In this document: positions 3,852-32,770 of the stretch, in pieces | Layout: the number at the start of each line of letters is the position of its first letter | Numbering within the stretch: position 1 is the stretch's first letter | Source: a virus | Taxonomy: Duplodnaviria > Caudoviricetes | Strand: one strand, 5' to 3' | Virus record (IMG/VR): IMGVR_UViG_3300042908_000332 | Location: 1-60,636 of that record | DNA: 60,636 nt | Translations under genes and position numbers: made by a program | Notes under the pieces: model-generated | Told to the model about the DNA's origin: nothing | What the model saw: the letters and a program-made list of their open reading frames with translations, nothing else | Databases searched by the model: none

Positions 3852-4271
3852 TTACCCCCTTACATTAAACTTTGGCATAACAAATCCTTCTTTCTTTTTA
3901 TCTTCCTTAGATACGTTTGTCCACTTGTCAATCTGCTCCAGTCTAGAGAAATACTCTACGGTGCAGTACTTATGATTATTCTCTGAGTGGAACTCGTCAT
4001 CCTTAGCGTTCTCCATTGCAACTTTGATGTCATCTAAGCTGAAATGCTTAAGTATTTCCTTGTACTTGTTGACAACCTTTTTGGTCATCACACGTGAACG
4101 CTTTTGGAAAACTTCGTTAAAGATATTTAATATTTTCAGAACATCATCGCCTGATGCAACGGATGTCATTGAATCAATATCTTTCTTGGCAGCATTGAGT
4201 ATTGCCGTCTTTTCTTCTGAGAACGGCCCGAATATCCTATCGAGCTCATTCTCTAAATGTTTTAGTATCAT
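3852..4271 (-). CDS. putative replication initiator/helicase loader (phage replication protein C-terminal-like domain)
   Basis: Directly upstream of dnaB; FNEVF...FSLDDIKVAMENAKDDEFH...KYCTVEYFSR resembles C-termini of phage replication proteins. Confidence 0.55.
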   Translation of the reverse strand: MILKHLENELDRIFGPFSEEKTAILNAAKKDIDSMTSVASGDDVLKILNIFNEVFQKRSRVMTKKVVNKYKEILKHFSLDDIKVAMENAKDDEFHSENNHKYCTVEYFSRLEQIDKWTNVSKEDKKKEGFVMPKFNVRG

Positions 4272-4276
4272 GGTAG

Positions 4277-4591
4277 TTAATCTAAAAAGTCCTTAATGCA
4301 TTCAGTGTTTATCTCATAATCTCTAGATTTTTTACGGTGTTTTTCGTAGTGGTTAATTGTAGCATGATCACATCCTATAAGCTTAGAGAGAGAAGTCATA
4401 GTGCTGTATGCGTTCAGATACTTATTGTTTTTCTTCCACCATAGTACAACAAAATGCTTTCTATCTATAAGTTCTTGCTTCCTGCTTTTATTTCTGATGT
4501 CATATGAACTAACCACCATTTCGAGTAGCCTATCATGTACGCTAGTACCATCTATGTGTCCATTGTTTACTAACCAATCTTCCCAACTCAT
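4277..4591 (-). CDS. DnaA C-terminal-like HTH protein
   Basis: KSRKQEL..RK...LSKLIGCDHATINH matches the DnaA domain IV DHxT(V/I)xH pattern. Confidence 0.65.
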   Translation of the reverse strand: MSWEDWLVNNGHIDGTSVHDRLLEMVVSSYDIRNKSRKQELIDRKHFVVLWWKKNNKYLNAYSTMTSLSKLIGCDHATINHYEKHRKKSRDYEINTECIKDFLD

Positions 4592-5106
4592 TTGTCGTAT
4601 GTCATTATTGTTTCGCCTAGACTATCAAAAAACTTAATAATTTCTTCTACGCCTTTATCATCTACATCTTTCATGTTGATAATGTCACCGTATTGTTTCT
4701 CCATGTGTTCGATAACAACTTTAGTATGTAGATCAATAAACACCGGATAGAATGTTCCTTTGTGCTCATCCATCTTATTGATGTCATTTATTGCACTCTT
4801 CAACTTAGCATAGAATAGAATTAACGAGGTCTTATTTTCGCCTGCGCTGATTCCAGTAGAACCATCCTCAATAGAGTTGTATATCTCTTGCAACAAGGTA
4901 TGGTCCTCTTCAAGTAGAGACTTCATCAATTCCTTTGTATGCATTTCCATTAGCACTGCCCACTTAGCTGCGTACTGCTTGAATCTGAACTTATAGTACT
5001 TCTTGCGGTATACAATCTCATCAAGGTCATTCAATGCAGATGATACTTTCATTACTGCTCTCAGCAAGTGAACGGTGTCTAGTTTTATTTGTTGTTCTTC
5101 AGCCAT
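4588..5106 (-). CDS. hypothetical protein
   Basis: ORF in operon; start MAEEQ at 5106 abuts the stop of the upstream small ORF. Confidence 0.7.
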   Translation of the reverse strand: MAEEQQIKLDTVHLLRAVMKVSSALNDLDEIVYRKKYYKFRFKQYAAKWAVLMEMHTKELMKSLLEEDHTLLQEIYNSIEDGSTGISAGENKTSLILFYAKLKSAINDINKMDEHKGTFYPVFIDLHTKVVIEHMEKQYGDIINMKDVDDKGVEEIIKFFDSLGETIMTYDK

Positions 5107-5107
5107 G

Positions 5108-5287
5108 TTATTCAATGTCTAGTTCTAATTGATTACTTAATATCAAAATGAGAGCCTTTATCTTTTCTTTCCTGGTCTCTCTCTTAGCCTGTAAATTCTT
5201 TATGTCTTTGTTGATTTGATTGATGTCATCATTCAATTCTTTGATTTGTATCAAGACATTTTCTTTAACTCCTTTGCTTACTTCCAT
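5108..5287 (-). CDS. small coiled-coil protein (59 aa, not in ORF track)
   Basis: MEVSKGVKENVLIQIKELNDDINQINKDIKNLQAKRETRKEKIKALILILSNQLELDIE; fills the gap exactly. Confidence 0.65.
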   Translation of the reverse strand: MEVSKGVKENVLIQIKELNDDINQINKDIKNLQAKRETRKEKIKALILILSNQLELDIE

Positions 5288-5391
5288 AGTTCAAATATAG
5301 CGTGAATAACTAACGCAATGCTGATTACGGTAATGAGTATCATTGTACCTAATGCAGCGTAGTATTCTCGTTCTTTGTTTCGTTTTTTCAT
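5278..5391 (-). CDS. small membrane protein (37 aa)
   Basis: MKKRNKEREYYAALGTMILITVISIALVIHAIFELWK; ATGA overlap with upstream ORF. Confidence 0.6.
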   Translation of the reverse strand: MKKRNKEREYYAALGTMILITVISIALVIHAIFELWK

Positions 5392-5465
5392 AGTGTAAAA
5401 ATTAAATAGCCAATAGTAATTCCAGCTAAAAGATGTAAGAGTCGGTAGTAGTCTTCTTGGTTCAT
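5388..5465 (-). CDS. small membrane peptide (25 aa, not in ORF track)
   Basis: MNQEDYYRLLHLLAGITIGYLIFTL; ATGA overlaps at both ends. Confidence 0.55.
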   Translation of the reverse strand: MNQEDYYRLLHLLAGITIGYLIFTL

Positions 5466-5668
5466 TGTTCTTGTTGTTTAAAGGTTTCGTTGTAGTATTG
5501 CTCTGCATCTTCATCAGAACACGGATTCAAATCTGCTTTGTAAGCCATTATAATCTGCTCCTTCTCCATTTTCTTCGCCTTATTAAACTCATTTATAAAA
5601 AGACTCATATGATGCTCACCTAAACTAATAGTAAGCATTTCTTCCAACCATTCTACTGCTGTTTTCAT
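5462..5668 (-). CDS. hypothetical phage protein
   Basis: MKTAVEWL...AKKMEKEQII...AEQYYNETF pattern typical of small Bacteroidota phage proteins. Confidence 0.75.
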   Translation of the reverse strand: MKTAVEWLEEMLTISLGEHHMSLFINEFNKAKKMEKEQIIMAYKADLNPCSDEDAEQYYNETFKQQEQ

Positions 5669-6150
5669 TACTTAGGTATTGTGATTTGTATTGTCTCTGA
5701 TCCACTCTTCTTAATCACAGCAGGCTCAACTACTACGCCATCGTTATCAATCAACTGGGCAACTGACATAGCCTGAATCATCTGCTTCTCGATTTCTTTC
5801 TGACGTTCTTTAAGCTGTGTGATTTGGTCATTTATCTCAGACCATTCATCGTTATGGGAGTAGTCATAGGTAGTAGGAGTATTCTTAACAACAACAGAGC
5901 AACCTAATACTTTTTGATCTTTATCAAACTTATACGCATCCTTGATAGCATAGTGCTTTAGTCCGTTCATGATTTGATCAGCAATTTCTGCGACACCCTT
6001 AGCTTTAACGTAAGCTTCAATTGGGTCTTCGTAGCCTCCATCAATAGAGGTCTTTACGATTTCGTTAGCTATATTAGAAAGGTTAGCCTTAGACAAATTA
6101 TCCAAGGCTATAACCATTCCTGTGCTATCTTCTTTAAAGATATCAATCAT
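5668..6150 (-). CDS. hypothetical protein of the recombination module
   Basis: TAATG coupling to neighbours; YDYS motif followed by coiled coil. Confidence 0.75.
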   Translation of the reverse strand: MIDIFKEDSTGMVIALDNLSKANLSNIANEIVKTSIDGGYEDPIEAYVKAKGVAEIADQIMNGLKHYAIKDAYKFDKDQKVLGCSVVVKNTPTTYDYSHNDEWSEINDQITQLKERQKEIEKQMIQAMSVAQLIDNDGVVVEPAVIKKSGSETIQITIPK

Positions 6151-7133
6151 TACATAATAGATTTGTAGTGAGCATTACATAGTTCTTTGAACATATCCAC
6201 GTGATCTTGTGGCGCATCAGGGAACTTAGCTACCGTATCCTTGGCCCATTGAATGAACTGCTTAGGATCAGTAATTGATTTAACCTTATCAAAGTAATCA
6301 GAGATGTTTTCCTCTTCAACTTCTTCTTCAGTCAAGCCCTCATCAAGTATCTCATCTACTTTATCCTGGATAGCTTTCTTAATTGTCTCATTCTTCATGC
6401 GTTTATCAGGATTCTTACCATATAGCTGATTGTACTCAGAAATTAATGCATCACGCTCAGTATCATTTTCTTCATCAGCTTGTGGCTTGAGTATACCCTT
6501 CACGTTAGCTTCATCGTCAACTTGTACCGGAGTAGGCTGTGGATCAGGTTGTACTTCTACAGGTGCAGCAGCAGCCTTGAACTTAGGTTCTTCTTGCTTA
6601 GGTTTCATCTCACCCCACTTAAATCTTACCTTACCATTCTCATCCTTAGCAGCAAGGAATGATACACGACCATCAGTGAACTCAGAGTACCATGTCCAAT
6701 CACGGATCTTAAGGTTATACGTTTGCTTGGGTTTACCACCATCCTTTGACCACTCATTGTCATTAAGCTTGACAGAGATTAAAGGATAGTCATACAACTC
6801 ACGTCCAATACCCCAATTGAAACAAGCACGCTTGAATGAGTCAGAAGATTCGCCCTTGGCTGCTTCAGTCATTGACTCAGTACCTACGTCAGATTTCCAA
6901 GTCCATTCACCACACGCATCGTTCCATAGGCCTACGTGGCAGAACAACTTGCCGTTAATAAACTCATGCTTGCGTTGCCATCCTAATGGTCCAACAGCAG
7001 CATCTAATCGTGCCATATCAACACGTGCATCTTTGTATGCTAAGATTGTAGCATAGCCACCGTTATTAATTGACTGTACTCTAAAGTCGATGTCACTAAT
7101 ATCTAGTGGTCTTGTTAGTTCTTGTAAGTTCAT
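6150..7133 (-). CDS. Rad52/Rad22-family single-strand annealing protein (Sak-like)
   Basis: AYKDAR...RLDAAVGPLGWQ...KSDVG...KGESSDSFKRACFNWGIGRELY. Confidence 0.9.
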   Translation of the reverse strand: MNLQELTRPLDISDIDFRVQSINNGGYATILAYKDARVDMARLDAAVGPLGWQRKHEFINGKLFCHVGLWNDACGEWTWKSDVGTESMTEAAKGESSDSFKRACFNWGIGRELYDYPLISVKLNDNEWSKDGGKPKQTYNLKIRDWTWYSEFTDGRVSFLAAKDENGKVRFKWGEMKPKQEEPKFKAAAAPVEVQPDPQPTPVQVDDEANVKGILKPQADEENDTERDALISEYNQLYGKNPDKRMKNETIKKAIQDKVDEILDEGLTEEEVEEENISDYFDKVKSITDPKQFIQWAKDTVAKFPDAPQDHVDMFKELCNAHYKSIM

Positions 7134-7196
7134 TTGTTTAATAGTATTAAGATTAATATTCCGATTGAATATCCAAGTATTTCATAGAATCTTTTA

Positions 7197-7424
7197 CTAA
7201 GCATCACCCTTTGTTTTTTGATTACTGAATTCATCTTTGTACTCTTGAGATTCGTATATAGATGATGCCATCTTCATTAATTGATACAGCCCAGGTTCTT
7301 CACCCATAGCGTACAAGAATGCAGCTAATACATCACTGTGTTTTCCTTGCAACTCCATTTGAAAGTTGTTGTCTGATACATCCATACGGAACGATACTAA
7401 TTTTTCTTTGCTCATAATTACCAA
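7197..7424 (-). CDS. hypothetical protein
   Basis: ORF in operon context. Confidence 0.6.
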   Translation of the reverse strand: MVIMSKEKLVSFRMDVSDNNFQMELQGKHSDVLAAFLYAMGEEPGLYQLMKMASSIYESQEYKDEFSNQKTKGDA

Positions 7425-7702
7425 TTAAAATCTTCTTCTAATTCTTTTCTTACATTAATCATTACATCTTCCTGTACAGTAGAGTATCTCATTAGGATGT
7501 TTCTTAAATCTTCATCAAGCATATCCGCAATTACAATGAAGGCATAAGAATCACGAGGAGTTCTACCGGACATTAAGTTGTAAACATTCTGATACGTTTC
7601 CCAATTGCCAGGAACACTACGTTCAATTAGGGCATCTTTGAGGTGCACAGCACTGTATCGCTTCGATTTCATTAGGTCTCGAATACCTTTCTTTTTGTTC
7701 AT
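7418..7702 (-). CDS. hypothetical protein, possible HTH regulator
   Basis: First gene after promoter; YQNVYNLMSGRTP resembles an XRE-type recognition helix. Confidence 0.55.
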   Translation of the reverse strand: MNKKKGIRDLMKSKRYSAVHLKDALIERSVPGNWETYQNVYNLMSGRTPRDSYAFIVIADMLDEDLRNILMRYSTVQEDVMINVRKELEEDFNW

Positions 7703-7720
7703 AAGTGATTTGATTTGCTA

Positions 7721-7728
7721 CAAATATA
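7721..7728 (-). promoter_or_regulatory. Bacteroidota -7 promoter element TATATTTG
   Basis: Consensus match 19 nt upstream of the ATG at 7702. Confidence 0.7.
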
Positions 7729-7765
7729 ACAACTTAAGTTTTATTTACCAAAAAATTTATTTAAA

Positions 7766-8098
7766 TTAAGGTAAATCATACCCTGTTCTATCTAAGATTA
7801 ATTTCATTAGATATGCGCAGCTGTCCATCTGTTCCTCTAGCAAGTGCATAAGGAAATCATCGTAGTTGTTTTCAGCTAGTGTTGTACCGTACTTACTGAT
7901 GCCTGCTTGACTACGCTCATCAAACTTTTTCTTAAGTACTTCAATTACAGGATCGGTAATGGTTTCTACATTTACAGGTTTCTCAGGTGCATTCATTCTA
8001 TCAAGGTATCCGTGACTAACATTAGTGTACAACTTTTCTACACCATCGTTAAACTTTTTTTTCATTGCTTCTTCCCAAGCTTTATTCCAATTATCCAT
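7766..8098 (-). CDS. conserved phage protein, possible all-alpha NTP pyrophosphatase
   Basis: RSQAGISKYGTTL...HLLEEQMDSCAY pattern. Confidence 0.6.
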   Translation of the reverse strand: MDNWNKAWEEAMKKKFNDGVEKLYTNVSHGYLDRMNAPEKPVNVETITDPVIEVLKKKFDERSQAGISKYGTTLAENNYDDFLMHLLEEQMDSCAYLMKLILDRTGYDLP

Positions 8099-8279
8099 CT
8101 TTTTGTTTTTTATAGTCAATAATAAATCCTACTGCTACTATGATGTTCATACCCATTGACATAATTACCTCGTGTATGTCTTGATAGACTGTAGTCATAA
8201 GGTGTATATGTCCGATAGACCAGAATGGAATAGCCAAGTTCTGACTGATCCAGGATATGGTGTACTTAATAAAGTTCAT
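8091..8279 (-). CDS. small membrane protein
   Basis: Two hydrophobic segments; overlaps neighbours; start MNFIK at 8279. Confidence 0.6.
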   Translation of the reverse strand: MNFIKYTISWISQNLAIPFWSIGHIHLMTTVYQDIHEVIMSMGMNIIVAVGFIIDYKKQKDG

Positions 8280-8523
8280 CTTCAAACAATTCATCTTTGT
8301 ATTTAGCAATTGTCTCTTCTAATCTAATGAACAACATCGCTGTAGCATCGAGATATTCTTGAGGTACTTCTAAGCCTTGTCTATGAAATGCTTCAATGAT
8401 TTGATGACCACATTCAGTTGCGCATCTATACACAGTCATAGGATGTAGGTTCTGCTTTACAAACATAAATGATAAGTTGAACACTATTTGTTCAGCACTT
8501 AATCTTTCTAATTTAGTTTCCAT
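8266..8523 (-). CDS. hypothetical protein
   Basis: ORF with A-rich start region. Confidence 0.65.
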   Translation of the reverse strand: METKLERLSAEQIVFNLSFMFVKQNLHPMTVYRCATECGHQIIEAFHRQGLEVPQEYLDATAMLFIRLEETIAKYKDELFEDELY

Positions 8524-9169
8524 TTGTTTTAGTTTTAATGATGTGTTCTGACCATTGCCTTGCCATTGCCTCAGCTATACCCGGAAATGTCTTTGACCGC
8601 ATCTTTGACCTTTCATCAGATGGCAGGTGCCAGCATTCAGCATACCAAGAAGGCATTGATTTACCACTTTCGAAGAACTTACGAGGGGCAGGCTCTACAA
8701 CACTCGTTGGTGTTAGTTCAGGCAATCCTTTTAACCATAAACACGTTTTCTTTTCGAATGGATCTCCGAATTGAAATGGGTTAATTATCTGATTAGGTTT
8801 ACGCCATTCAGTACTCATTATACCAACAGGGTTTTCTATAGCGATATAATCAGCATTGGCATTAGCAAATAACATAAAGAAGTTGATAGCATCTTTTCTA
8901 TCTTCAATTCTTTTCAGTGCTTTATCGCCATACTTTTCTACATTGAACCATCTGTTTCCAGTTACAGTCAAATAGGTGCAAGGTGGGAATGCTATGATTA
9001 AATCCCATTGTTGTTCTAATAACTTTGTTACATCTTGTTGCAGATGCCATTCAGGGTGACCACCTGATTCAGGAAGTATATCACAACTATATGCTTCGTG
9101 ACCTAACTTTCTAAATTCTTTTGTTACTGCCTGACTTTCTTCGCAGGCTAATAAGATTCTTAATTTCAT
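8513..9169 (-). CDS. DNA cytosine-C5 methyltransferase-like protein
   Basis: LLACEESQ, SCDILP, DLIIAFPPCT (catalytic PC), IENP, RSKTFPGIA. Confidence 0.8.
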   Translation of the reverse strand: MKLRILLACEESQAVTKEFRKLGHEAYSCDILPESGGHPEWHLQQDVTKLLEQQWDLIIAFPPCTYLTVTGNRWFNVEKYGDKALKRIEDRKDAINFFMLFANANADYIAIENPVGIMSTEWRKPNQIINPFQFGDPFEKKTCLWLKGLPELTPTSVVEPAPRKFFESGKSMPSWYAECWHLPSDERSKMRSKTFPGIAEAMARQWSEHIIKTKTNGN

Positions 9170-9184
9170 ACTCTTTTATTTATA

Positions 9185-9450
9185 GCTTCGCTTTTATACT
9201 GCATATACCACACAGCACTTAAATCTCTTAATTGAATAGAGATACTCCCACCAATGACACTTCCCTCTGCGACCTTAGCTATTTATTATAGGCTTCTTGG
9301 TTCACTTGTTCTTTTACCTTTCAGTATGCAGTACTCGTTGTCAAGCGTTCAGACAGAGCGAGATTTTATTTATCGAACAAGCGTTCATTGTGAGACATTG
9401 TTTTTGGTAAAGATGTTCAATGGTATACAACACCCGTATGTAATAGGGCA
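9185..9450 (-). ncRNA. candidate ~270 nt structured non-coding leader
   Basis: No credible ORF; several long-range inverted repeats (9197-9205/9325-9333, 9246-9257/9385-9395, 9303-9311/9375-9383, 9204-9210/9421-9427). Confidence 0.4.
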
Positions 9451-9451
9451 T

Positions 9452-9486
9452 AAAAAAACCCTAGCCGTCTCGTACTCAGCTAGGGT
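9452..9486 (-). terminator. intrinsic terminator
   Basis: ACCCTAGC/GCTAGGGT stem followed by T run. Confidence 0.8.
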
Positions 9487-9545
9487 CAGTATATATCTAC
9501 CATGATATAATTCTAATCTTAGATATCGAAGTACGAGTTCGACAC
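9452..9545 (-). ncRNA. small RNA/attenuator leader with kissing loops and anti-start-codon linker
   Basis: Promoter TACATTTG, hairpin GTGTCGAA-CTCGTAC-TTCGATAT, linker TATCATGGTAGATATAT, terminator CCCTAGC-(loop containing GTACGAG)-GCTAGGG-T7. Confidence 0.7.
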
Positions 9546-9547
9546 CA

Positions 9548-9555
9548 CAAATGTA
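9548..9555 (-). promoter_or_regulatory. Bacteroidota -7 promoter element TACATTTG
   Basis: Consensus match directly before the leader hairpin. Confidence 0.75.
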
Positions 9556-9596
9556 TTAAACATTTTGAAATAAAAAAATTTGACAGTGATAATTTT

Positions 9597-9983
9597 TTAA
9601 TTAAGCCATGCATAAACCTGATCACTAGCCTTCTTATTTGAGTTCTTAAGCTCAGGCATAATGATTTCGTATTTGATACTTATACCGGATCCTCCTGAAT
9701 TCATAACGTACATTCCATCTTTCATTACTAATACTGTAGATGGGCTGTATATAATATCTATGGGCAGCTGTGGTAGTTCTGATTCTCCGATTAAGTATAG
9801 ATACACATCATTCCAAAAGTCATAGCCTTCCCTGGACTGTTCCCAATCAAATAGCGTCATGAGTTCTACTGATGCAAGCGTACCTTCTTCTTGGTATGCT
9901 ACATTGAAATCATCCATGTTGCTAACGATTAAGTCAACATATTTCTCAGGTAGTCTTTGGAGTAGTATGTCTATGATTTTCAT
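9597..9983 (-). CDS. hypothetical protein
   Basis: ORF with FDWEQSREGYDFW motif. Confidence 0.7.
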   Translation of the reverse strand: MKIIDILLQRLPEKYVDLIVSNMDDFNVAYQEEGTLASVELMTLFDWEQSREGYDFWNDVYLYLIGESELPQLPIDIIYSPSTVLVMKDGMYVMNSGGSGISIKYEIIMPELKNSNKKASDQVYAWLN

Positions 9984-9991
9984 ACTCTAAT

Positions 9992-10159
9992 TTACAATAT
10001 AATTCCATATAGTATAATTTCGATTGCTCTAAATCTATCCTCTATGTAGTCTCCAATTGCGTACTCTGAATATCTTCTGAGTACCTCATTGATTATGCCT
10101 TGATCTATCTCTATTTGTAGATACTCGGCTACTTGTATTACATCTTCTGAAGTGACCAT
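9992..10159 (-). CDS. small hypothetical protein (55 aa, not in ORF track)
   Basis: MVTSEDVIQVAEYLQIEIDQG...; fills gap in tightly packed operon. Confidence 0.55.
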   Translation of the reverse strand: MVTSEDVIQVAEYLQIEIDQGIINEVLRRYSEYAIGDYIEDRFRAIEIILYGIIL

Positions 10160-10308
10160 AACGTTTCTTGTTTAGCAATGTATATTATTTCATCGTATTG
10201 ATGCTCAGAAGCAAACTTCGTTATTGCATCTATCTCATTTATTGCAGAGATATTTATACCTGTTGGTAACTTGTCTTTACGTGTGTAGAATATGTGGTAT
10301 GTACTCAT
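10138..10308 (-). CDS. small hypothetical protein (56 aa, not in ORF track)
   Basis: MSTYHIFYTRKDKLPTGINISAINEIDAI...; ATGA overlap with upstream ORF. Confidence 0.55.
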   Translation of the reverse strand: MSTYHIFYTRKDKLPTGINISAINEIDAITKFASEHQYDEIIYIAKQETLWSLQKM

Positions 10309-10541
10309 GTTGTATAGATTAATGTTTCTTTATATCCGTTTCTTTCTCGCACAAAGAATAGTGCTGCGCCACCATCATTGCATTCGTCATCTGTTACTGG
10401 AATCATAAAGTCTCCACCCTCAAATACAATTACTAATGGTTTCTTGTAGAAGCCAAAGTCATTAGCTTCTTGATCAGTCATGTATCTTACACCTGATATC
10501 TTTTTACCTACTAGGTATTCGAATTCTTTGTTGTGATTCAT
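10305..10541 (-). CDS. hypothetical early protein
   Basis: LVGKKISGVRYMT...DDECNDGGA; coupled to neighbours. Confidence 0.75.
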   Translation of the reverse strand: MNHNKEFEYLVGKKISGVRYMTDQEANDFGFYKKPLVIVFEGGDFMIPVTDDECNDGGAALFFVRERNGYKETLIYTT

Positions 10542-10747
10542 TGTTGTTGTCTTAGGTTAATTAAATCATTTAGTTTATGCGATAGGCTAAATGCTATTTC
10601 ACATATAGTGTACACTAACTCTTCATCGTCTTCGAATGATAGCTCTACAATAGTTGCTGTGTCTCCTTTCTTAATTGGTGCGAATTCACATTCAATAATT
10701 GTTTTTAATAGATACTTACGTGTATCATCGTCAAATACTCTTTTCAT
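10538..10747 (-). CDS. hypothetical early protein
   Basis: ATGA overlaps. Confidence 0.65.
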   Translation of the reverse strand: MKRVFDDDTRKYLLKTIIECEFAPIKKGDTATIVELSFEDDEELVYTICEIAFSLSHKLNDLINLRQQQ

Positions 10748-10935
10748 TTTGTTTTAATTAAGTGTTCGTAATAACCTTTTTCATAATCATTAGCGCAGTC
10801 AGTTCTGTCGCTAGTTTTTGGTATCTCTACAATACTGTAGATTCTTTCTATTTCTTTTTCATACAGCGTTGCAGCTAATAGCATACCTATTGCAGTTCCA
10901 GCGAATAGGTATAGAAGGTTCTCAAATCTCCTCAT
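10744..10935 (-). CDS. small membrane-anchored protein
   Basis: MRRFENLLYLFAGTAIGMLLAATLY N-terminal hydrophobic helix. Confidence 0.6.
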   Translation of the reverse strand: MRRFENLLYLFAGTAIGMLLAATLYEKEIERIYSIVEIPKTSDRTDCANDYEKGYYEHLIKTK

Positions 10936-11167
10936 ATTCATCTTCATCATCAAAGGTTGTGTAATAGAAGTACTCCTCTGCATAGAAGTAATCAAGCAGG
11001 TCTCGATCATCATCTAGGTGTACCTCATTACCATCAGCATCAATCCATTCAAGTGTGCGTAGATGCGCAATTAAATGTTTCTCTTCACTAAAGTGTAGCA
11101 GTGTATCAAAGTGGTCAACGACATACCCTGAGGTCATGCGCTCACCTGTTGCATCACATATTCTCAC
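10922..11167 (-). CDS. hypothetical acidic early protein
   Basis: RICDATGERMTSGY...YFYYT; overlaps neighbours. Confidence 0.7.
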   Translation of the reverse strand: MRICDATGERMTSGYVVDHFDTLLHFSEEKHLIAHLRTLEWIDADGNEVHLDDDRDLLDYFYAEEYFYYTTFDDEDEYEEI

Positions 11168-11388
11168 AAGTAATCTTCTTTAAGTTCTAACTCCATTTGA
11201 TGTCCTTCATCAAAGATTGCATCCTGTATGCGTTCACATATCCAATCACTGTTTAACGCATTGTCTAATATCTCATCTGCTTCTTCATCGGTGCAGTGAA
11301 ATTTCTCAGTGACATCATCTCGATGCCACATATTACCTACGTAGTAACCATCTCTACGTAATACCTCAATTGCTTCTTGTACTGTCAT
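11164..11388 (-). CDS. hypothetical early protein
   Basis: Coupled ORF. Confidence 0.7.
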   Translation of the reverse strand: MTVQEAIEVLRRDGYYVGNMWHRDDVTEKFHCTDEEADEILDNALNSDWICERIQDAIFDEGHQMELELKEDYL

Positions 11389-11576
11389 AACTTTTCAATT
11401 ACTCTAATTAACATTTCAGTTTCTTGTGAGTACTCAATACTCTCAGTTAACTTATCGAAGCCCATGTCCTTACATAGGCGCTCTAATGCCGGCACACAAT
11501 CTTTGTATGTGTACTCATCCATAAACACAGCGACTAACTCAGCGTAGCCACCTCTCTCAAAAAATACTCTTACCAT
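11385..11576 (-). CDS. hypothetical early protein
   Basis: Coupled ORF. Confidence 0.7.
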   Translation of the reverse strand: MVRVFFERGGYAELVAVFMDEYTYKDCVPALERLCKDMGFDKLTESIEYSQETEMLIRVIEKL

Positions 11577-11875
11577 TGGTTTAAATTTCTAGTTCTACTC
11601 TTATTGTTAGCCCATGCCTCGTTGCACTGTGCTCTTGTTAACTCATCTTGAATGTCATGTATACCTCCAATGCCATGGTATGTACCGTATCTATAACCAT
11701 ATGTGCTAACTCTTACGATTGGGTCTTCCTTTAGGTATTCAAGAGCTTCCTTAGTTCGTTCTCCAAAGACTCTGTAAACGTCCATTGTTTTGAGTTGACC
11801 GTATCCATCAGCCCACGCATTAGCTACATAGTTTACTAATGATTCTTTGATGTGTTCTTTGATTGGTTTATCCAT
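11570..11875 (-). CDS. hypothetical early protein
   Basis: Coupled ORF. Confidence 0.7.
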   Translation of the reverse strand: MDKPIKEHIKESLVNYVANAWADGYGQLKTMDVYRVFGERTKEALEYLKEDPIVRVSTYGYRYGTYHGIGGIHDIQDELTRAQCNEAWANNKSRTRNLNQW

Positions 11876-12422
11876 TGTTATTTGTATTGGTTAATACTTG
11901 ATTCCATTCATCATCAGTAAGATGTTTCTTGAACGCATCTTCTACATATTCAAGGTCATACGTCTCATCATTGATGTCTTCTATCAGTCTTTCAATGGCG
12001 TAATCTTTGTCACACAATAGATCATACTCAAAGCAGGTCATCTCGTTGTCATCTAATACACCATCGTGTGCACTGTAATCTCCAGCGAAGTCCATACCGC
12101 ATTCATAGTAATCACCATGCGCTTCTACATCAAACACCTTGGTAATCTCAGCAATCAATTGCAATGGTGGTGACCAAGCGCTGTCACCTGATACAATTAA
12201 GCCATCATGCTCTAATCGTAATTCAAAGTCCCACCACTTTGTGCCATATGCATATGTATCGAATTCACCATCTATTATTGATGATAATGGCTTACCCAAT
12301 ACCATCTCAGCAAAGTGAGTGAAGTAATCGCACTCATTGTATCGCTTAAAACGTATGTGTAATCTTTCAATGTCTTCTTTTTTACCCGTAAATGTTACGT
12401 GGTTTGAACAATAATTAGCCAT
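11868..12422 (-). CDS. DUF1281/YubB ferredoxin-like domain protein
   Basis: MANYCSNHVTFTG...YGTKWW...SAWSPP...YYECGMDFAG pattern; start preceded by ATCTACC. Confidence 0.75.
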   Translation of the reverse strand: MANYCSNHVTFTGKKEDIERLHIRFKRYNECDYFTHFAEMVLGKPLSSIIDGEFDTYAYGTKWWDFELRLEHDGLIVSGDSAWSPPLQLIAEITKVFDVEAHGDYYECGMDFAGDYSAHDGVLDDNEMTCFEYDLLCDKDYAIERLIEDINDETYDLEYVEDAFKKHLTDDEWNQVLTNTNNNG

Positions 12423-12432
12423 GGTAGATAAT

Positions 12433-13134
12433 TTATACACCTAATGCGGTGTGGTTAATAACAAATCCCGTTGTATCTTTCTTTGCTTTACCCTTTGCAA
12501 CGAGGCCTACAACAACTCCTCGCTCATCGGTGTACCTGAGGTCATCTTCGTCTCCACTTACCACATGAAATCCATTCCATGTATCGGGTAACGTATCGAA
12601 TACTACAGCTACATTTCCTCCTAATCTAAGATACTCAATACATTCTAAATCATTGGTCTCTGACCTTGAAAATGTCAAGTGATAATCAGTGCCAAGGTAT
12701 TGTATTGCACGCTTGAGATTCTTGGTGTAATCATAGAACTTAATGTTAGTCAACGTGTTGAGCGCATCTACATTAAGCTTTACTTTAAGTAATCCAAGGA
12801 AGTCGATGTCGGAAGTACCATTTAAACGCACTGCAACTTCTGCATTATTTTTGTTGACAGTGGTAAGTTCTCCCCAAAGCTGAGAGAGGAACGCTGACGT
12901 ATCCGATAGGAAGTAATCAGTCTTGCGTATCCTAGCTGATTGTACATTAGAGAATGCGCCACGACCTGCCGAGTTAAGGCAAGCCGTAGCACATCCTACT
13001 GATGCGTGACCACATACATTCTTACCATAGCTATTCTGCTTGTATGGTGAGAGATGCATGATGTAACTTTTAATGGGGTTCTTAGCAGTCTTGGTGTTGC
13101 TGCTCCCCGGACTCAGTAGCTTCATCTTCTTCAT
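12433..13134 (-). CDS. Gp88-like protein (Cys-motif, radical-SAM-like)
   Basis: NVCGHASVGCATACLNSAGRG, VRLNGTSDI, FYDYTK, YHLTFS, GDEDDLR. Confidence 0.8.
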   Translation of the reverse strand: MKKMKLLSPGSSNTKTAKNPIKSYIMHLSPYKQNSYGKNVCGHASVGCATACLNSAGRGAFSNVQSARIRKTDYFLSDTSAFLSQLWGELTTVNKNNAEVAVRLNGTSDIDFLGLLKVKLNVDALNTLTNIKFYDYTKNLKRAIQYLGTDYHLTFSRSETNDLECIEYLRLGGNVAVVFDTLPDTWNGFHVVSGDEDDLRYTDERGVVVGLVAKGKAKKDTTGFVINHTALGV

Positions 13135-13498
13135 TATTTTTTAATTCATCTAGCTCTCTGATAAGTTCATCTAAGAAGTTGTTAGCCATTCTATGTGATG
13201 AATCTAATTGATCGGCTACGATATCTTGTAGGTCGAATGTGACGTCAATGTCAATACCACCACCATATACATTCTTTTGATATGATGTGTCAAGGCTATC
13301 GAATACATTCCTGTCAATAAACCTGTCGAGTAACTGCACAATGGTTTCTTTTACTACGTCAGACAACTCATACTTACCTACTGGTTTGTTCTGCTCTTCC
13401 TTTGCGGAATTGATAGCATCTGATAAATCAATCTTGAGTGTTACTAAGTCGAATTGTAACTTCTCTAATCTCTCTGATAATTGTTCTAAATTGTTCAT
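13082..13498 (-). CDS. hypothetical early protein
   Basis: ORF; start MNNLEQ at 13498 preceded by ATATACC. Confidence 0.7.
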   Translation of the reverse strand: MNNLEQLSERLEKLQFDLVTLKIDLSDAINSAKEEQNKPVGKYELSDVVKETIVQLLDRFIDRNVFDSLDTSYQKNVYGGGIDIDVTFDLQDIVADQLDSSHRMANNFLDELIRELDELKNNEEDEATESGEQQHQDC

Positions 13499-13517
13499 GG
13501 TATATATATTTATTGGT

Positions 13518-13877
13518 TTATAATTCAGCTGTGAACTCACAGTATCCTTTTTCTTTAATACAATCTCTAATCTTTTTACCTAACCTAAGGTCAGCGTACT
13601 CACTTACTTCACCATCACTAATGCCTGCATTTGTAAGCATTTCTTCATTGTAACCTAAATTATCGGTGAAGAACTTGTCAATAACTGCAAGCTTGTCGCC
13701 AAGTTTATCCTCAATTCTTTTTATCTCATCCTCAACATGATGCAACTCATAATCACTGAAGTAGTACTCAAGATAGTTTGGCTCATGACCTGTTACACCG
13801 AAGCGGTCGGCCGCATGGCTTGGTTGTACTGCGAACCAAAACTTTCCGTTGATGTCGCCTGAATAATATCGTCCCAT
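13518..13877 (-). CDS. hypothetical early protein
   Basis: MGRYYSGDINGKFWFAVQPS...ADRFG...CEFTAEL. Confidence 0.8.
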   Translation of the reverse strand: MGRYYSGDINGKFWFAVQPSHAADRFGVTGHEPNYLEYYFSDYELHHVEDEIKRIEDKLGDKLAVIDKFFTDNLGYNEEMLTNAGISDGEVSEYADLRLGKKIRDCIKEKGYCEFTAEL

Positions 13878-13888
13878 AGTTTATTTAA

Positions 13889-14197
13889 TTAAATTGCTAA
13901 TCCTTTTACATCTATCAATTGTCCGTCCCATAGCTCACCATTGAGATACCATTGCCAATTCTTTTGGTTTATGTGTACTCCAGGAATTGCGTTGAGACGT
14001 TCTTTTGTGGTCTTGGTGAACCATCCTGTTGTCGAGATGGATAAAGTGCGCTCAGGGTCATTATATCGGTACGCAATGCGATTACCGTATAGCTTCATGA
14101 TGGTTACATTTGGCAATACTTCGATTGTCATGTTGTCTTTCTTGAATGGTCGAGCGTTCATGAATGCATCGACTGCTTGTGCTGTTATCTTTTTCAT
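13889..14197 (-). CDS. hypothetical early protein
   Basis: LYGNRIA...GWFTKTTKERLNAI...QKNWQWY; start preceded by ATCTACC. Confidence 0.8.
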   Translation of the reverse strand: MKKITAQAVDAFMNARPFKKDNMTIEVLPNVTIMKLYGNRIAYRYNDPERTLSISTTGWFTKTTKERLNAIPGVHINQKNWQWYLNGELWDGQLIDVKGLAI

Positions 14198-14209
14198 GGT
14201 AGATTGTAT

Positions 14210-14479
14210 TTAGTATTTAAGTTTGCCATCTTCATAGAACATTCTGATTCTTGCTTTGATGTCTTCAGCTGTGCCGACCCATCCTTTGATTGATACCATT
14301 GGTATCTTTCCATCAATCATCATTTGTTCTTCATTCTTAATCATCTCTTCTTTGTTTGCGATGACATGGTCGCAGAATGATTCAAGTCCTTGCATAATGA
14401 AAGATTGGCATAGCGCACCGTATGGGCTATAGTTCATCAAGTTTTTCATTAAGTCTTCGTTAGTTAATTGCTTTTTCAT
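14210..14479 (-). CDS. hypothetical early protein
   Basis: ORF with A-rich start region. Confidence 0.7.
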   Translation of the reverse strand: MKKQLTNEDLMKNLMNYSPYGALCQSFIMQGLESFCDHVIANKEEMIKNEEQMMIDGKIPMVSIKGWVGTAEDIKARIRMFYEDGKLKY

Positions 14480-14498
14480 TTTGTTTTGTGTTTAGTTA

Positions 14499-14939
14499 TT
14501 AAATATATCCTTCATCTGCCATTGATAGATAACCTGTATCCGATAGAATGATGTGGTCCAGGACTCGTATGTCTAGTATGTCTCCTCCGCTTCTTAGCTT
14601 GCGAGTTATCTCAATGTCCTGCTCACTTGGTTTTAGGTTACCACTCGGGTGGTTGTGCGCTAAGATTATGCTATGACCTACTGCATTTAGTGCAATAGTG
14701 AACACAACTTTTGCATCTACAATTACTCCTGCCGTGCCTCCGCTTGATATTTTATCTACTGAGACAACCTCATTAGCACGATTAAGTGTAATCATGGCGC
14801 ACTCTTCTGTCCATTGGATTGTATCTGCATCGAATATAGTTCGGAAGAATTTTGCAGCATCTGCACTTGTCTTCATTTGATAGGTGATGCCGTCACCTTT
14901 CTTGGTTTTTACTGTGATTTTTGTTTGTGGTAGTTTCAT
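14499..14939 (-). CDS. radC: RadC-like JAB domain protein
   Basis: EE...LNRAN...GG...ILAHNHPSGNLKPSEQD...LDHIIL. Confidence 0.92.
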   Translation of the reverse strand: MKLPQTKITVKTKKGDGITYQMKTSADAAKFFRTIFDADTIQWTEECAMITLNRANEVVSVDKISSGGTAGVIVDAKVVFTIALNAVGHSIILAHNHPSGNLKPSEQDIEITRKLRSGGDILDIRVLDHIILSDTGYLSMADEGYI

Positions 14940-15094
14940 TTGATTAGTTTTAATGTATACTTGTCTCTTATTCCCTGCCAAGACAATAGACTCTTGGCTA
15001 TCTTTACTGCTTCTGCTCTATCGTTTGCGGATATTATTGTGCTATCCACTTCACCCCCATCATGTGTGAGTACAGTTAATTTCCAGTGCTTCAT
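14936..15094 (-). CDS. small hypothetical protein (52 aa, not in ORF track)
   Basis: MKHWKLTVLTHDGGEVDSTIISANDRAEAVKIA...; ATGA overlaps on both sides. Confidence 0.6.
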   Translation of the reverse strand: MKHWKLTVLTHDGGEVDSTIISANDRAEAVKIAKSLLSWQGIRDKYTLKLIK

Positions 15095-15222
15095 TGTCTT
15101 GGTTTTTGTTGTGCTTTCTTAATTGACTTTGATACATAGTATCCCTTGGTGTGACATTGTTTTGCTGTGCCACATGATGCCGCAACTATTGCGATAATCA
15201 TAATTGTAATTAGTTTTCTCAC
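15091..15222 (-). CDS. small lipoprotein (43 aa, GTG start, not in ORF track)
   Basis: MRKLITIMIIAIVAASCGTAKQCHTKG...: basic N-terminus, hydrophobic core, lipobox AASC. Confidence 0.6.
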   Translation of the reverse strand: MRKLITIMIIAIVAASCGTAKQCHTKGYYVSKSIKKAQQKPRQ

Positions 15223-15261
15223 TTTGTTTTATTTTAAAAAGTTTGCGTTGACAGTGATGGG

Positions 15262-15294
15262 AAAAGAAATAGGCGCACCAATTACGATACGCCT
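15262..15294 (-). terminator. intrinsic terminator
   Basis: AGGCGTATC-GTAATT-GGTGCGCCT followed by ATTTCTTTT. Confidence 0.7.
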
Positions 15295-15321
15295 TTCTTC
15301 TCTATCTACCACAACAGAATG

Positions 15322-15399
15322 TTATTTCTTCGATAGTAATTTAAGTGTCAATAATATGTTGAGTACTACTGACAGGTATATAATTTCTCCTGCACTCAT
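15322..15399 (-). CDS. small membrane peptide (25 aa, not in ORF track)
   Basis: MSAGEIIYLSVVLNILLTLKLLSKK; ATGA overlap with upstream ORF. Confidence 0.5.
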   Translation of the reverse strand: MSAGEIIYLSVVLNILLTLKLLSKK

Positions 15400-15617
15400 G
15401 GTCTCTCAATTAAATAGTGAATAGTATAATCTTCTTGATCTTCGTATAGTACCTCCTGAATGTTGGTGTATTTACGCACCAATTCCTTCAGCTTGACGTA
15501 CCTATCTATGCTTATCCATTGTCCTTTGACCTCTCCCGGATTGCATAGGAACACATTTGTTTTGTTGCTTGGGCGCAGTATCTCCGCACTCCAAACCTTG
15601 TTAATTTGTACTCTCAT
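15396..15617 (-). CDS. hypothetical early protein
   Basis: ORF with A-rich start region. Confidence 0.65.
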   Translation of the reverse strand: MRVQINKVWSAEILRPSNKTNVFLCNPGEVKGQWISIDRYVKLKELVRKYTNIQEVLYEDQEDYTIHYLIERP

Positions 15618-15620
15618 TTG

Positions 15621-15851
15621 TTATCTGTTTTTGTGGTTTAAACGGTAATATTTCTTGAGTTCATCTAATTCATCGGCACTCTTATTTAAATTAATTTCAA
15701 GGTACTCGTAGAATTCATTTGTATCTCTCAAAGATTCATACAATTCTTTACTTTGTTTGTGTTGACCATTTATTTTACTCTCGTATATGTAGCAAAATAA
15801 TTCTTCCCATGTTTGGAATTCAAGGTCTTGAGGTTCTAAAAACTTTTTCAT
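15621..15851 (-). CDS. hypothetical early protein
   Basis: YIYESKINGQHKQ; start preceded by ATCTACCATA. Confidence 0.75.
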   Translation of the reverse strand: MKKFLEPQDLEFQTWEELFCYIYESKINGQHKQSKELYESLRDTNEFYEYLEINLNKSADELDELKKYYRLNHKNR

Positions 15852-15870
15852 TATGGTAGATTTTTGTGGT

Positions 15871-16125
15871 TTACTTTGTGCTTTTTATCCAAAGTTCTTT
15901 TGATAATAGACCTTTTTGTATTGATAATTCTGCGGCTTCCTTCAGTATGCCTTTGCCTGAGAAGTCAAGACCGCTTATGTATTCGCCCCATTTGCCAAAC
16001 CTTGCAATTACAGTTGGTCTCCTGCCTTGAGCGCAAAAGTACAGGTCGTAGTCAGTTCCATCCCTTGTTACTGAATCTAAATGAGTGCAGTTGTCGCAGT
16101 CGTGTTCGTGAAATACTTTTTTCAT
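15871..16125 (-). CDS. hypothetical early protein with HDCxxC motif
   Basis: MKKVFHEHDCDNCTHL...DLYFC...TVIARFG...EYISG; start preceded by ATCTACCA. Confidence 0.75.
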   Translation of the reverse strand: MKKVFHEHDCDNCTHLDSVTRDGTDYDLYFCAQGRRPTVIARFGKWGEYISGLDFSGKGILKEAAELSIQKGLLSKELWIKSTK

Positions 16126-16142
16126 TGGTAGATAAATTAATT

Positions 16143-16225
16143 GGTTAAGACTCATAAAAAAAAGGGGATGCACCAATATAGTACACCCCCTGGAGTTTCG
16201 TCCATTTAGGACTCATCAGTTAACC
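16143..16225 (-). ncRNA. type I hammerhead ribozyme
   Basis: GGTTAA-CTGATGA-GTCC TAAAT GGAC-GAAA-CTC...GAGTC-TTAACC: complete core, stems I/II/III, GUC cleavage triplet (cut between 16149 and 16148). Confidence 0.88.
16156..16191 (-). terminator. intrinsic terminator nested in hammerhead stem III loop
   Basis: GGGGGTGTAC-TATATT-GGTGCATCCCC followed by T8. Confidence 0.75.
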
Positions 16226-16654: not shown

Positions 16655-16692
16655 TTGTTTTGTTTTTTATTGGTTATTAATTAAAGATTAGC

Positions 16693-16759
16693 GGTTCAGT
16701 AGGACTCGAACCTACAAAACAATTAGTTATTTCAAATTGTCTTAATGCCTTTTTGAACC
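16693..16759 (-). ncRNA. tRNA-like element (degenerate D arm, non-canonical anticodon loop)
   Basis: GGTTCA/TGAACC acceptor-like stem, GTAGG-TTCGAGT-CCTAC T arm, ACAATT/AATTGT stem with 10 nt loop. Confidence 0.55.
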
Positions 16760-17467
16760 TTTGCCCTGCTCCATTAATGCAGATATCTATTTATTTATCC
16801 TTTGCCCTTTTTTAATTCGGAAAAAGATTAGAGGATTTTGCTTGTTGCCCCTACAATTGCACATTGTTGCTACCTATTTGCTAATTAGGTTGTGCCTTTG
16901 TCGTTTGGTCTATATAATTGCAAATGCCTTGAAAGGATTAAGCAGCTGCCTTGTTACTGCCGTTCGGTTATGCTTTATGTTGCAATTGCAACTATTCTCA
17001 ATTGAGAGTAAGCCCGAAGCCCTTATTAACTTGCGTTATCATGTAGCCCGTATGTCAATTGTGTTGCGTTCTCGTTTGAACAAGGCTAATCTACAAACTA
17101 AATTTGAATTAACAATAAAAAAGTTTGAAAAAATTTATCGAGAACGTCTGAAACCCTTGAAAAATAAGGGATTTTTGAATTGAGTGAAATACTGGAAATC
17201 GGTAAAATTTAGGCAAAATTGAGACAAATTAACGTGAATTAAACGCAACAAATTGTAGGTATTTTTGGCACAAATTAGGTATAAAAATAGCTATGTAGTA
17301 TGTCTATATTGGACGTATATAAAGCCTAATTATAACAAAGGCGAAGCCGATGCAAAGAACGTGAAGCGAAGGTTGAATAAAAGATAGTTAACTAGCTGAG
17401 AATGAGGATGTTCAGGGCTTCGTTTTCGGTAGAGAATGGGGAGGGGTGCCGGTAAGGCGTATAAGTC

Positions 17468-17533
17468 CCTAAAAAACACAGATACTATTCTGAGTCAACC
17501 TAAAAAATAGAGATACTTTTCAGGACATAACCT
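17468..17533. repeat. imperfect direct repeat in the divergent intergenic region
   Basis: CCTAAAAAAcacAGATACTaTTCtG...AACCT versus CCTAAAAAAtagAGATACTtTTCaG...AACCT. Confidence 0.55.
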
Positions 17534-17856: not shown

Positions 17857-17864
17857 TATATTTG
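17857..17864 (+). promoter_or_regulatory. Bacteroidota -7 promoter element TATATTTG
   Basis: Consensus match 4 nt before the ATG at 17869 (probably leaderless mRNA). Confidence 0.7.
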
Positions 17865-17868
17865 CCAT

Positions 17869-32768: not shown

Positions 32769-32770
32769 CC

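Follow-up and report, generated by a model that had tools for sequence, protein, structure and literature searches.

The 60,636 base pairs (bp) analysed here, which are the whole of virus record IMGVR_UViG_3300042908_000332 (estimated to be 88% complete, 37% G+C) and are referred to below as the window, contain on the minus strand a predicted small RNA (sRNA) of about 95 nucleotides (nt). This RNA probably acts in trans as an antisense regulator that blocks translation initiation on a small regulon of the phage's own early genes. The unit lies in a non-coding gap of 427 bases between an open reading frame (ORF) of 128 amino acids (aa) at 9597–9983 and a methyltransferase gene at 8513–9169. The reading is carried by an RNA scaffold maintained by compensatory base changes, by boxes at early start codons that are complementary to the centre of the RNA, and by the joint change of centre and box among related phages.

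The leftward arm of the window holds about 44 small genes (16654 to 183), including those for a DnaB-like helicase, an Erf-like annealing protein and a DNA methyltransferase, and the rightward arm carries structural genes from about 17.9 kilobases (kb). No tRNA gene was identified in the window by ARAGORN, and no tyrosine or serine recombinase (Phage_integrase, Resolvase) was matched in the 88%-complete record. With gene starts called by a first-ATG rule, Shine-Dalgarno-like tetramers are rare upstream of starts (4 of 85 called starts versus 123 of 951 internal windows). A prevails in the same regions, at position -3 in 49 of the 85 starts and at -11 and -12 in 54 and 57 of them. These figures agree with an initial annotation of this DNA, made from its letters, which had proposed a host that does not use Shine-Dalgarno pairing. 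Intergenic boxes of the form TAnnTTTG, the -7 promoter consensus of Bacteroidota, stand before several early genes. From the few Shine-Dalgarno motifs, the A-rich leaders and the TAnnTTTG boxes, we infer that the host belongs to the phylum Bacteroidota; the available part of one study describes Bacteroidetes as lacking Shine-Dalgarno sequences and preferring A at -3 (PMC6847099). A blastn search of the sRNA intergenic region against named phages gave no match, and in tblastn searches the terminase and the DnaB-like helicase matched phages of many hosts, all of them distantly (23–35% identity).

The initial annotation had described a minus-strand unit of about 95 nt running from a promoter to a terminator with seven T residues, and each of these elements is present where it was placed. 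After the promoter box TACATTTG, the minus strand reads GTGTCGAA and onward, then CCCTAGC-N13-GCTAGGG plus T7, to position 9452. The elements of the unit are as follows.

9548–9555, minus strand: -7 promoter box TACATTTG of the TAnnTTTG type, kept in the homologues found via the neighbouring protein and in L046.
9452–9547, minus strand: predicted sRNA of about 95 nt, its 5′ end placed from the promoter box and its 3′ end from the T-run.
9524–9544, minus strand: predicted 5′ hairpin H1, with stem 9544–9538 paired to 9530–9524 and a 7-nt loop CUCGUAC at 9531–9537.
9531–9537, minus strand: first strand of the kissing loop, CUCGUAC, pairing with 9469–9475.
9490–9510, minus strand: centre UUAUAUCAUGGUAGAUAUAUA, the candidate seed, with hairpin H3 (stem 9509–9504 paired to 9497–9492, loop AUGGUA at 9498–9503).
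9459–9485, minus strand: terminator hairpin with a 9-bp stem and a loop containing GUACGAG at 9469–9475, followed by U7 at 9452–9458.

The minimum-energy fold of the unit (-26.6 kcal/mol, z = -2.6) is predicted to consist of the 5′ hairpin, a small, variable hairpin, a central hairpin UAUAUC-AUGGUA-GAUAUA and the terminator. The linker, which had been called unpaired, is predicted instead to form this central hairpin, with a 6-bp A/U stem and the loop AUGGUA. Its own promoter and intrinsic terminator frame the short unit, and both are kept in all 21 distinct homologues, among which no conserved ORF was found within the unit. A covariance model built for the RNA (R1) finds one strong copy per genome. 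A cmscan search of 9100–9700 against all 4227 Rfam families (E up to 10) gave no family match, including none to C4, which we take to be the family of c4-type immunity RNA; the best score belonged to NsiR1 (21.8 bits, gathering score 39). Among 23 sequencing runs that matched the window, none contained half of its words. Metatranscriptome contigs from four runs cover 9196–9467 and 9763–9949.

Homologues were collected by several routes. The neighbouring protein led to five loci, four of them long enough to cover the place of the unit, and the promoter box and terminator are kept in all four. The exact centre led to ten viral loci and two species-genome contigs. A promoter-gap-terminator pattern that left the centre free returned the same nine viral loci and an additional 26 metagenome loci, of which 13 have the canonical centre, two a one-base variant and 11 an unrelated centre. 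A degenerate centre pattern added L046 which, though found through its centre only, also keeps the promoter box. The total of 21 distinct sequences was aligned as A2. Among about 185,000 species genomes, the exact 21-nt centre occurs in two, one of which is a phage-like contig identical to L009/L035. The other copy (L017:4632–4652) is on a contig of a metagenome-assembled genome (MAG) labelled Nitrosomonadales; it has no promoter, hairpins or terminator, scores 26 bits with R1 and may be due to chance.

The proposed structure pairs 93.9% of 654 cells in A2, versus 24–48% when the 3′ partners are slid by one to three columns. The terminator loop contains a 7-nt complement of the whole loop of the 5′ hairpin. 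Every one of the seven pairs has changed on both sides, and 91.2% of cells in this kissing helix are paired across the 21 distinct homologues. At least ten variants of the loop pair exist, including CTCGTAC/GTACGAG, TCCACAC/GTGTGGA, CTCCACC/GGTGGAG, CTCCACT/AGTGGAG, TTCGTCC/GGACGAA, CTCGACC/GGTCGAG, CTCCAAC/GTTGGAG, CTGCTCC/GGAGCAG and CTCGTCC/GGACGAG. Three of the four inner pairs of the H1 stem have changed on both sides (CGAA/UUCG to CUAA/UUAG), and helices 6 and 7 of the terminator stem show G-U, U-A and A-U exchanges. Since both hairpin stems carry compensatory changes, the contact is a loop-loop (kissing) contact and not the one long helix that nested folding draws for some members. The RNA is read as a minus-strand transcript because G-U pairs at three positions (columns 5-28, 82-104 and 86-103) are valid solely for that strand.

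The centre is identical in 18 of the 21 distinct homologues and differs by one base in the other three (AUGGUA to UUGGUA). As a result of this invariance, the 21 sequences show no covariation for the central hairpin. In L072/L074, which are more distant, the loop AUGGUA and its closing C-G pair stand on a different stem (GGUUC/GAACU), and this stem exchange supports a central hairpin that presents AUGGUA.

Complements of the centre stand at start codons of the leftward arm. The six sites claimed by the initial annotation, at 4271, 12422, 14197, 13498, 15851 and 16125, were all recovered with complementarity of 8–11 nt, and the weaker matches it had listed at 15399 and 32771 both exist. The individual sites are listed here.

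4266–4276, minus strand: box CTACCATGATA of 11 nt, spanning ATG 4271 of a 139-aa ORF upstream of the DnaB-like helicase.
12420–12430, minus strand: box TATCTACCATG of 11 nt, spanning ATG 12422 of a 184-aa ORF, with the best cofolding gain (-16.1 kcal/mol).
13495–13502, minus strand: weaker box TACCATGA, spanning ATG 13498 of a 138-aa ORF, an exact match, with 14 of 15 positions matching over a longer stretch; retained in L007, L012 and L015.
14194–14204, minus strand: box ATCTACCATGA of 11 nt, spanning ATG 14197 of a 102-aa ORF (Pfam Kyano_Gp96), kept in L012 and L016.
15853–15861, minus strand: box ATCTACCAT, followed by aATG, 1 nt 5′ of ATG 15851 of a 76-aa ORF.
16126–16134, minus strand: box TATCTACCA, immediately 5′ of ATG 16125 of an 84-aa ORF, kept in L012.
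15399, minus strand: weak site ACCATGA.
32768–32776, plus strand: ACCATGATA, a possible additional target where late gene 32771 (252 aa) begins, cofolding rank 4 of 86.

The targets are mostly small proteins without known function, and the description of them as replication genes in the initial annotation is not supported.

On the sense strand of the early region, all four copies of TCTACC lie directly 5′ of an ATG that opens an ORF of at least 35 aa, and five of eight copies of CTACCA are at gene starts. None of the approximately 41 late genes has a box at its called start; three late matches are internal ATGs of long ORFs. Exact complements of the 21-nt centre of at least 9 nt occur in five of 85 start windows and at six places on the whole sense strand, the sixth being 16125, an internal ATG skipped by the first-ATG caller. 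At 9 nt, shuffled centres reach five start windows in 2 of 1000 free shuffles and in 5 of 1000 shuffles with CAT fixed. Duplex energies of -14 kcal/mol or lower are found in five of 85 start windows versus seven of 1368 internal windows. With cofolding, which charges for opening the RNA's own fold, 12422 and 14197 rank first and second of 86, and ranks 4 to 11 include 32771, 13498, 17869, 15851 and 16125. The energy ranking is noisy since the centre is A/U-rich and partly self-complementary, and both energy measures enrich the claimed targets without cleanly separating them. From these counts, the complementarity is real and non-random, and the statistics within one genome are moderate.

Related phages provide a comparison that one genome does not. 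An early protein of about 490 aa, absent from the window, is orthologous among the relatives (44–54% identity); between phages with the canonical centre and those with the variant UUGGUA (L034, L040, L046), it is 44–45% identical over its full length with start codons aligned. Four pairings of seed and box are found on this gene: CAUGGUAG/CTACCATG, CUUGGUAG/CTACCAAGATG or CTACCAAAATG, UUCAUGGUA/TACCATGAA and UUGUGCUGUA/TACAGCACAATG. Phages with the CAUGGUAG seed (L006, L023, L059–L062, L079) have CTACCATG at its start, which in L006 and L023 is the canonical CTACC directly before ATG. L040, read over 5.7 kb only, has the CUUGGUAG seed and CTACCAAGATG at this start, reading CTACCAAG before ATG, which is exactly complementary to the variant centre over 12 nt. 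L046, with the same seed, has CTACCAAAATG, reading CTACCAAA before ATG, and carries three start-proximal copies of CTACCAA (two besides that of the 490-aa gene) and no CTACCAT. The orthologue in L072/L074 has TACCATGAA with seed UUCAUGGUA, and in L076, with seed UUGUGCUGUA, TACAGCACAA overlaps the ATG. On the question raised by the initial annotation, whether linker and target motifs co-vary across related phages, these four pairs show seed and box changing together.

Using the 490-aa protein as an anchor, 45 viral loci were obtained, and a box was defined as CTACC or TACCATG within 40 nt of the start. Nine of the 45 have a box. Seven of these nine are followed, 4.6–6.5 kb downstream, by an sRNA unit whose seed is C[AU]UGGUAGA, and the other two end before that distance. 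In the 36 boxless loci, 19 of which extend at least 7 kb downstream, the seed 9-mer occurs once, inside a coding sequence. As the loci are interrelated, the counts represent perhaps three or four independent box lineages. Homologues that keep CTACC and lose the linker, which the initial annotation had named as a finding that would speak against its proposal, were not seen among the 45 loci, the two box loci without a seed being those that are not covered.

The boxes are also conserved at other genes. L012 keeps TATCTACCAatg, ATCTACCATGA, TACCATGA and TATCTACCATGA at orthologous starts, and at the 139-aa gene upstream of the helicase CTACCATG is kept in L006, L011 and L014 despite different flanks. 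In three whole relatives, 3 of 9, 3 of 6 and 4 of 8 sense-context copies of CTACCA lie no more than 14 nt upstream of a called start; the figure for the window is 4 of 8, where about 4% would be expected by our estimate from sequence share. The box before 12422 is part of a conserved module, ACACC-loop-GGTGT followed by ATAAATTATCTACCATG. The window copy, at 12423–12455 on the minus strand, reads ACACC-GCATTA-GGTGT-ATAAATTATCTACC directly 5′ of the ATG. In relatives, the module ACACC-loop-GGTGT-ATAAA(A)TTATCTACCATG precedes at least four different genes (183–186, 101, 86 and 63 aa). Because the module stands before at least four unrelated genes, the box travels with a regulatory cassette. Mobile regulatory cassettes occur at gene-shuffling boundaries of other phages, and the hairpin-box module resembles them.

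Units of the same design with other centres are found at the same relative place in L066, L070, L071, L072/L074, L075 and L076. The shared design comprises a TAnnTTTG box, a 5′ part in which positions 9–13 onward are complementary to 7–9 nt of the terminator loop, and a U-run; shuffled 5′ parts reach a complement of the terminator loop in 3 to 109 of 1000 cases, depending on the unit. No unit was found in L064 and L068 with filters off. The L070 centre (UUUCCUUUUUU and UUUUUCAUGUU) matches seven of 31 of its own start windows over at least 9 nt, which none of 1000 shuffles reached; one of these matches is a partial one at the 490-aa orthologue, and the complement of this centre resembles a generic A-rich leader. 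For the L072 centre, matches were found at two of 21 starts, a count that 15 of 1000 shuffles reach; one of the two is TACCATGAA at the orthologue, and there the centre also matches the base in which this flank departs from the canonical one. On unrelated phage contigs, at L022:2003–2110 and in L042 (minus strand), the kissing design recurs with yet another centre: the same promoter box is followed by a hairpin GCAT-TGGTGG-ATGC and a terminator loop containing CCACCA; a start-site complement was looked for there and none was seen.

The evidence at the level of the family is suggestive but mixed. It is compatible with a modular RNA regulator, in which a kissing-clamped scaffold carries an exchangeable seed that is matched, lineage by lineage, by early start-codon boxes residing on mobile modules, an arrangement that would resemble RegA and would need neither Shine-Dalgarno pairing nor Hfq. 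In this scaffold, the kissing contact drifts fast and is always compensated, with a partial exception in L013. We hold this wider proposal at a little short of an even chance.

For the window itself, the following mechanism is proposed. The kissing contact between the loop of the 5′ hairpin and that of the terminator would make the RNA a closed, compact scaffold with the central hairpin on display, holding the fold in place and perhaps shielding the ends. The loop AUGGUA would nucleate pairing with UACCAU at the start codon, and pairing would spread into one A/U arm, the 3′ arm for 12422, 14197, 15851 and 16125 and the 5′ arm for 4271. The pairing box, (U)AUCUACC(AUG), would lie on or no more than 3 nt from the start codon of five or six same-strand early genes. 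The duplex would cover the initiation region and keep 30S subunits off in a host whose ribosomes would choose starts by unstructured A-rich context and not by a Shine-Dalgarno site. The target genes would be turned down as the RNA accumulates.

Sequence and comparison establish the promoter and terminator, the helices, the kissing contact and the strand of the RNA, and also that the seed is invariant, where the boxes lie and that they are conserved, and that seed and box change together. A discrete transcript, repression rather than activation, and the timing of the effect are what we infer from sequence. The proposal of a trans-acting RNA directed at the phage's own start regions is thereby supported in its main part, with an independent unit, conserved boxes and joint change of seed and box in its favour, and is corrected with respect to the unpaired linker; the early-to-middle switch that it also proposed is a hypothetical role.

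Several observations weigh against this proposal. No contig of the four metatranscriptome runs mentioned above lies over 9478–9547, though this does not speak for the absence of the RNA, since such contigs would reveal neither a transcript of 95 nt nor where it starts and stops. The predicted central hairpin partly hides the seed. At 8 nt the shuffle test is weak and not significant (34 and 73 of 1000), because A/U-rich shuffles match A/U-rich leaders. The 4271 site falls outside the top 14 of 86 in cofolding, and scores as good as those of the weaker claimed sites are reached by starts that had not been claimed (29464, 10308, 59058, 6150 and others). The kissing loop of L013 pairs at only five of six positions and in a shifted register (CCTCACC versus GTGTGGA). 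The A/U co-variation is not strict, as canonical phages also carry CTACCAA (at 16125, in G001 at 28971 and in G003 at 48864); these canonical sites have their ATG 1–5 nt downstream. There are just two or three variant lineages, and because the loci share ancestry their counts are not independent events. The A-to-U change in the loop also converts AUG to UUG, another start codon, which a short reading frame would allow. Among the distant relatives, the L076 centre matches only one of 20 starts, with TACAGCACAA at the orthologue ATG, and 143 of 1000 shuffles equal this. Three of the six (L066, L071 and L075) have no start-region complementarity in the available DNA, and the whole L066 record (G004) shows no clear start-site target, only scattered matches with one or two mismatches. 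Lastly, a contig carrying one of the homologues belongs to a MAG labelled Polynucleobacter, a label that is taken as a binning artefact.

Of the other explanations considered, the one that survives best accepts the RNA and its pairing and assigns them a different outcome, either activation or stabilisation, cleavage, or action mainly on host mRNAs, in which case the phage boxes would be of secondary importance. The sequence evidence does not fix whether pairing raises or lowers expression, and the C-rich positions -1, -2 and -5 of CTACC depart from the A-rich context, meaning that these starts may be intrinsically weak and need help. This outcome is nonetheless unlikely: a duplex over -8 to +3 of the start codon leaves the 30S subunit no room, no inhibitory hairpin lies over these starts (the hairpin before 12422 sits upstream of the box), and the boxes that co-vary with the seed are on phage genes.

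Somewhat less probable is a cis-acting leader or attenuator, in which the invariant hairpin senses a factor and controls read-through into the downstream cassette of about 280 nt and the methyltransferase gene. The unit does always precede one of two conserved non-coding cassettes, a metatranscriptome contig (X5) runs from the downstream cassette 16 nt into the terminator of a relative, and loop-loop contacts are common in riboswitch folds. The invariant columns, however, form one 21-nt block and the remaining linkers differ in both length and sequence, unlike what a ligand pocket, a riboswitch or an attenuator would show. Close relatives have exchanged the cassette and kept the unit. Since it is the loop of the terminator, and not its stem, that takes part in the long-range pairing, the kissing 7-mer cannot compete with terminator formation. 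The start-codon boxes and their joint change with the seed are left unexplained by a leader.

A protein-binding hairpin acting as decoy, sponge or scaffold, with a protein reading the CTACC box and the complementarity arising as a by-product, is very unlikely. It would account for a hairpin whose stem and loop are invariant in 18 of 21 homologues, as expected of a protein site, and the available part of a study on T4 RegA establishes that proteins can read start regions (PMC3014915). A decoy would, on the other hand, be expected to carry the box sequence itself and not its complement. L072/L074 change the stem while keeping the loop and the target match, and the quite different seeds of L070 and L076 again match start regions.

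There is even less to recommend a functional mini-ORF, AUG GUA GAU AUA UAC UGA (MVDIY), of which translation would be the function. The AUG has A at -3, and the sole change seen in the centre turns it into UUG, which keeps a start codon. Against this, no codon shows synonymous variation in 21 distinct sequences, though the flanks vary; the invariance extends in equal measure to the 7 nt upstream of the AUG; and the end of the frame differs, with five codons in the window, seven in L001 and read-through into the terminator in L002/L005.

The poorest of the alternatives is an element acting as DNA (attachment-site core, operator, origin or packaging signal), since the near-palindromic centre (TATATC-N6-GATATA) and its 21-bp invariance, typical of attP sites, are countered by the finding of the 21-mer in only two of about 185,000 species genomes (one phage-like, the other of unrelated context), by the lack of a tyrosine or serine recombinase in the 88%-complete record, by start boxes that are asymmetric half-matches always in the sense orientation, and by G-U covariation that marks RNA. 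An attP or prophage reading was tried and rejected on the same two counts, the two species-genome contigs and the recombinase. All five alternatives leave unexplained the sense-oriented start boxes that change with the seed.

The trans-acting antisense RNA may be compared with known systems. The c4 RNA of phages P1 and P7 and the CI RNA of satellite P4 are phage-encoded RNAs whose loops pair with short sites on their own mRNA and block expression. Full repression of ant requires the C4 antisense RNA, for which a binding site is named in the available part of the source (PMC8198154). The c4 sites are inside the RNA's own operon and serve temperate-phage immunity, whereas the sites here are five or six gene starts spread over about 12 kb, from 4271 to 16125; in addition, no recombinase was found, no Rfam family was matched, and the fold has an intramolecular kissing contact. 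Among phages, the P1/P7 c4 RNA is nearest in logic and departs in model match, operon arrangement and lifestyle. T4 RegA, as given in the part of the source available, is a 122-aa protein that acts on the start regions of about 30 early mRNAs at sites overlapping or just 5′ of the AUG (PMC3014915). As proposed here, one phage factor occludes the initiation regions of many early mRNAs; RegA, however, is a protein that reads loose A/U-rich sites, while the present factor would be an RNA and would recognise a defined box through base pairing. With c4 (PMC8198154) and RegA (PMC3014915) on record, at least as these sources describe them in part, the statement of the initial annotation that no system of this form has been described was too strong.

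From the parts of the sources available, VpdS of vibriophage VP882 and PreS of lambda are also phage base-pairing RNAs with several targets (PMC12197685; bioRxiv 10.1101/2024.10.31.621285). They differ in being linked to Hfq, in acting largely on host mRNAs and in belonging to Proteobacteria, as opposed to a box in cis on the phage's own starts and start signals that lack Shine-Dalgarno motifs. Hairpin-loop recognition is well established for ColE1 RNA I/RNA II and R1 CopA/CopT, where fully paired 7-nt loop-loop helices occur. The sRNA unit shares both the hairpin loops and the 7-nt helix; in those plasmids, kissing between two molecules is the regulatory step, while here the contact is intramolecular and the seed is a third hairpin. 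In the literature searched, no described small RNA of a Bacteroidota phage was found, nor a design joining a 5′ loop to a terminator loop; the part of a review on the subject that was available (PMC12197685) has no occurrence of 'Bacteroid', 'Flavobacter' or 'kissing'.

The surroundings of the unit contain other elements. Directly after the sRNA terminator, at 9170–9451 on the minus strand, is a non-coding stretch of about 280 nt that occurs as two alternative cassettes among close relatives. The type A cassette, present in the window, is nearly invariant, and metatranscriptome contigs from three studies lie at 9196–9467. For the type B cassette (L002:3534–3850 and others), 53 pairs are predicted, of which 11 show compensatory changes, and its loops contain runs of G. 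Neither type matches Rfam. The cassette is probably a second, larger structured phage RNA.

At 15267–15361 on the minus strand, a 25-codon hydrophobic ORF (15399–15322) is followed by GUUGUGGUAGAUAGAG and then by a terminator-like hairpin at 15294–15271. This region scores 19.8 bits with R1, a matching weak R1 match exists in L054, and the region may be a degenerate or second seed-bearing 3′ end. A CTACCAC box is present at one start in L006 and in G003. A motif, TCACTGTCAA, is located at 9580–9589 and at 15248–15257 (minus strand), between the end of a gene or terminator and the next unit. It precedes the sRNA promoter in relatives and has four matches in the window versus 0.45 expected; it may be a transcription-factor site.

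Between the divergent early and late arms is a 1.2-kb non-coding region (16655–17868). At about 16690–16720 on the minus strand it contains GTAGGTTCGAGTCCTACTGAACCGC, which resembles the T-arm and 3′ acceptor strand of a tRNA; ARAGORN calls none there and no integrase was found. In the leader of the first rightward gene (17869, an HNH endonuclease), positions 17847–17866 on the plus strand could form 14 contiguous pairs with the centre, two of them G-U. This site may be outside the mRNA because it overlaps the promoter box TATATTTG. A strong intrinsic terminator with a 13-bp stem and U8 is located at 16163–16191 on the minus strand, immediately upstream of 16125, so that transcription of this gene would depend on read-through or on a promoter of its own.

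Little is known of post-transcriptional control in Bacteroidota and their phages. If the antisense reading is true, the phage would have a sequence-defined regulon in which one RNA and one box of 7–11 nt address five or six genes, and the start codon would have been made addressable in a host that has no ribosome-binding motif. A set of early proteins without known function, including the conserved protein of about 490 aa, would be marked as co-regulated. The small kissing-loop scaffold with its swappable seed could also serve for gene knock-down in Bacteroidota.

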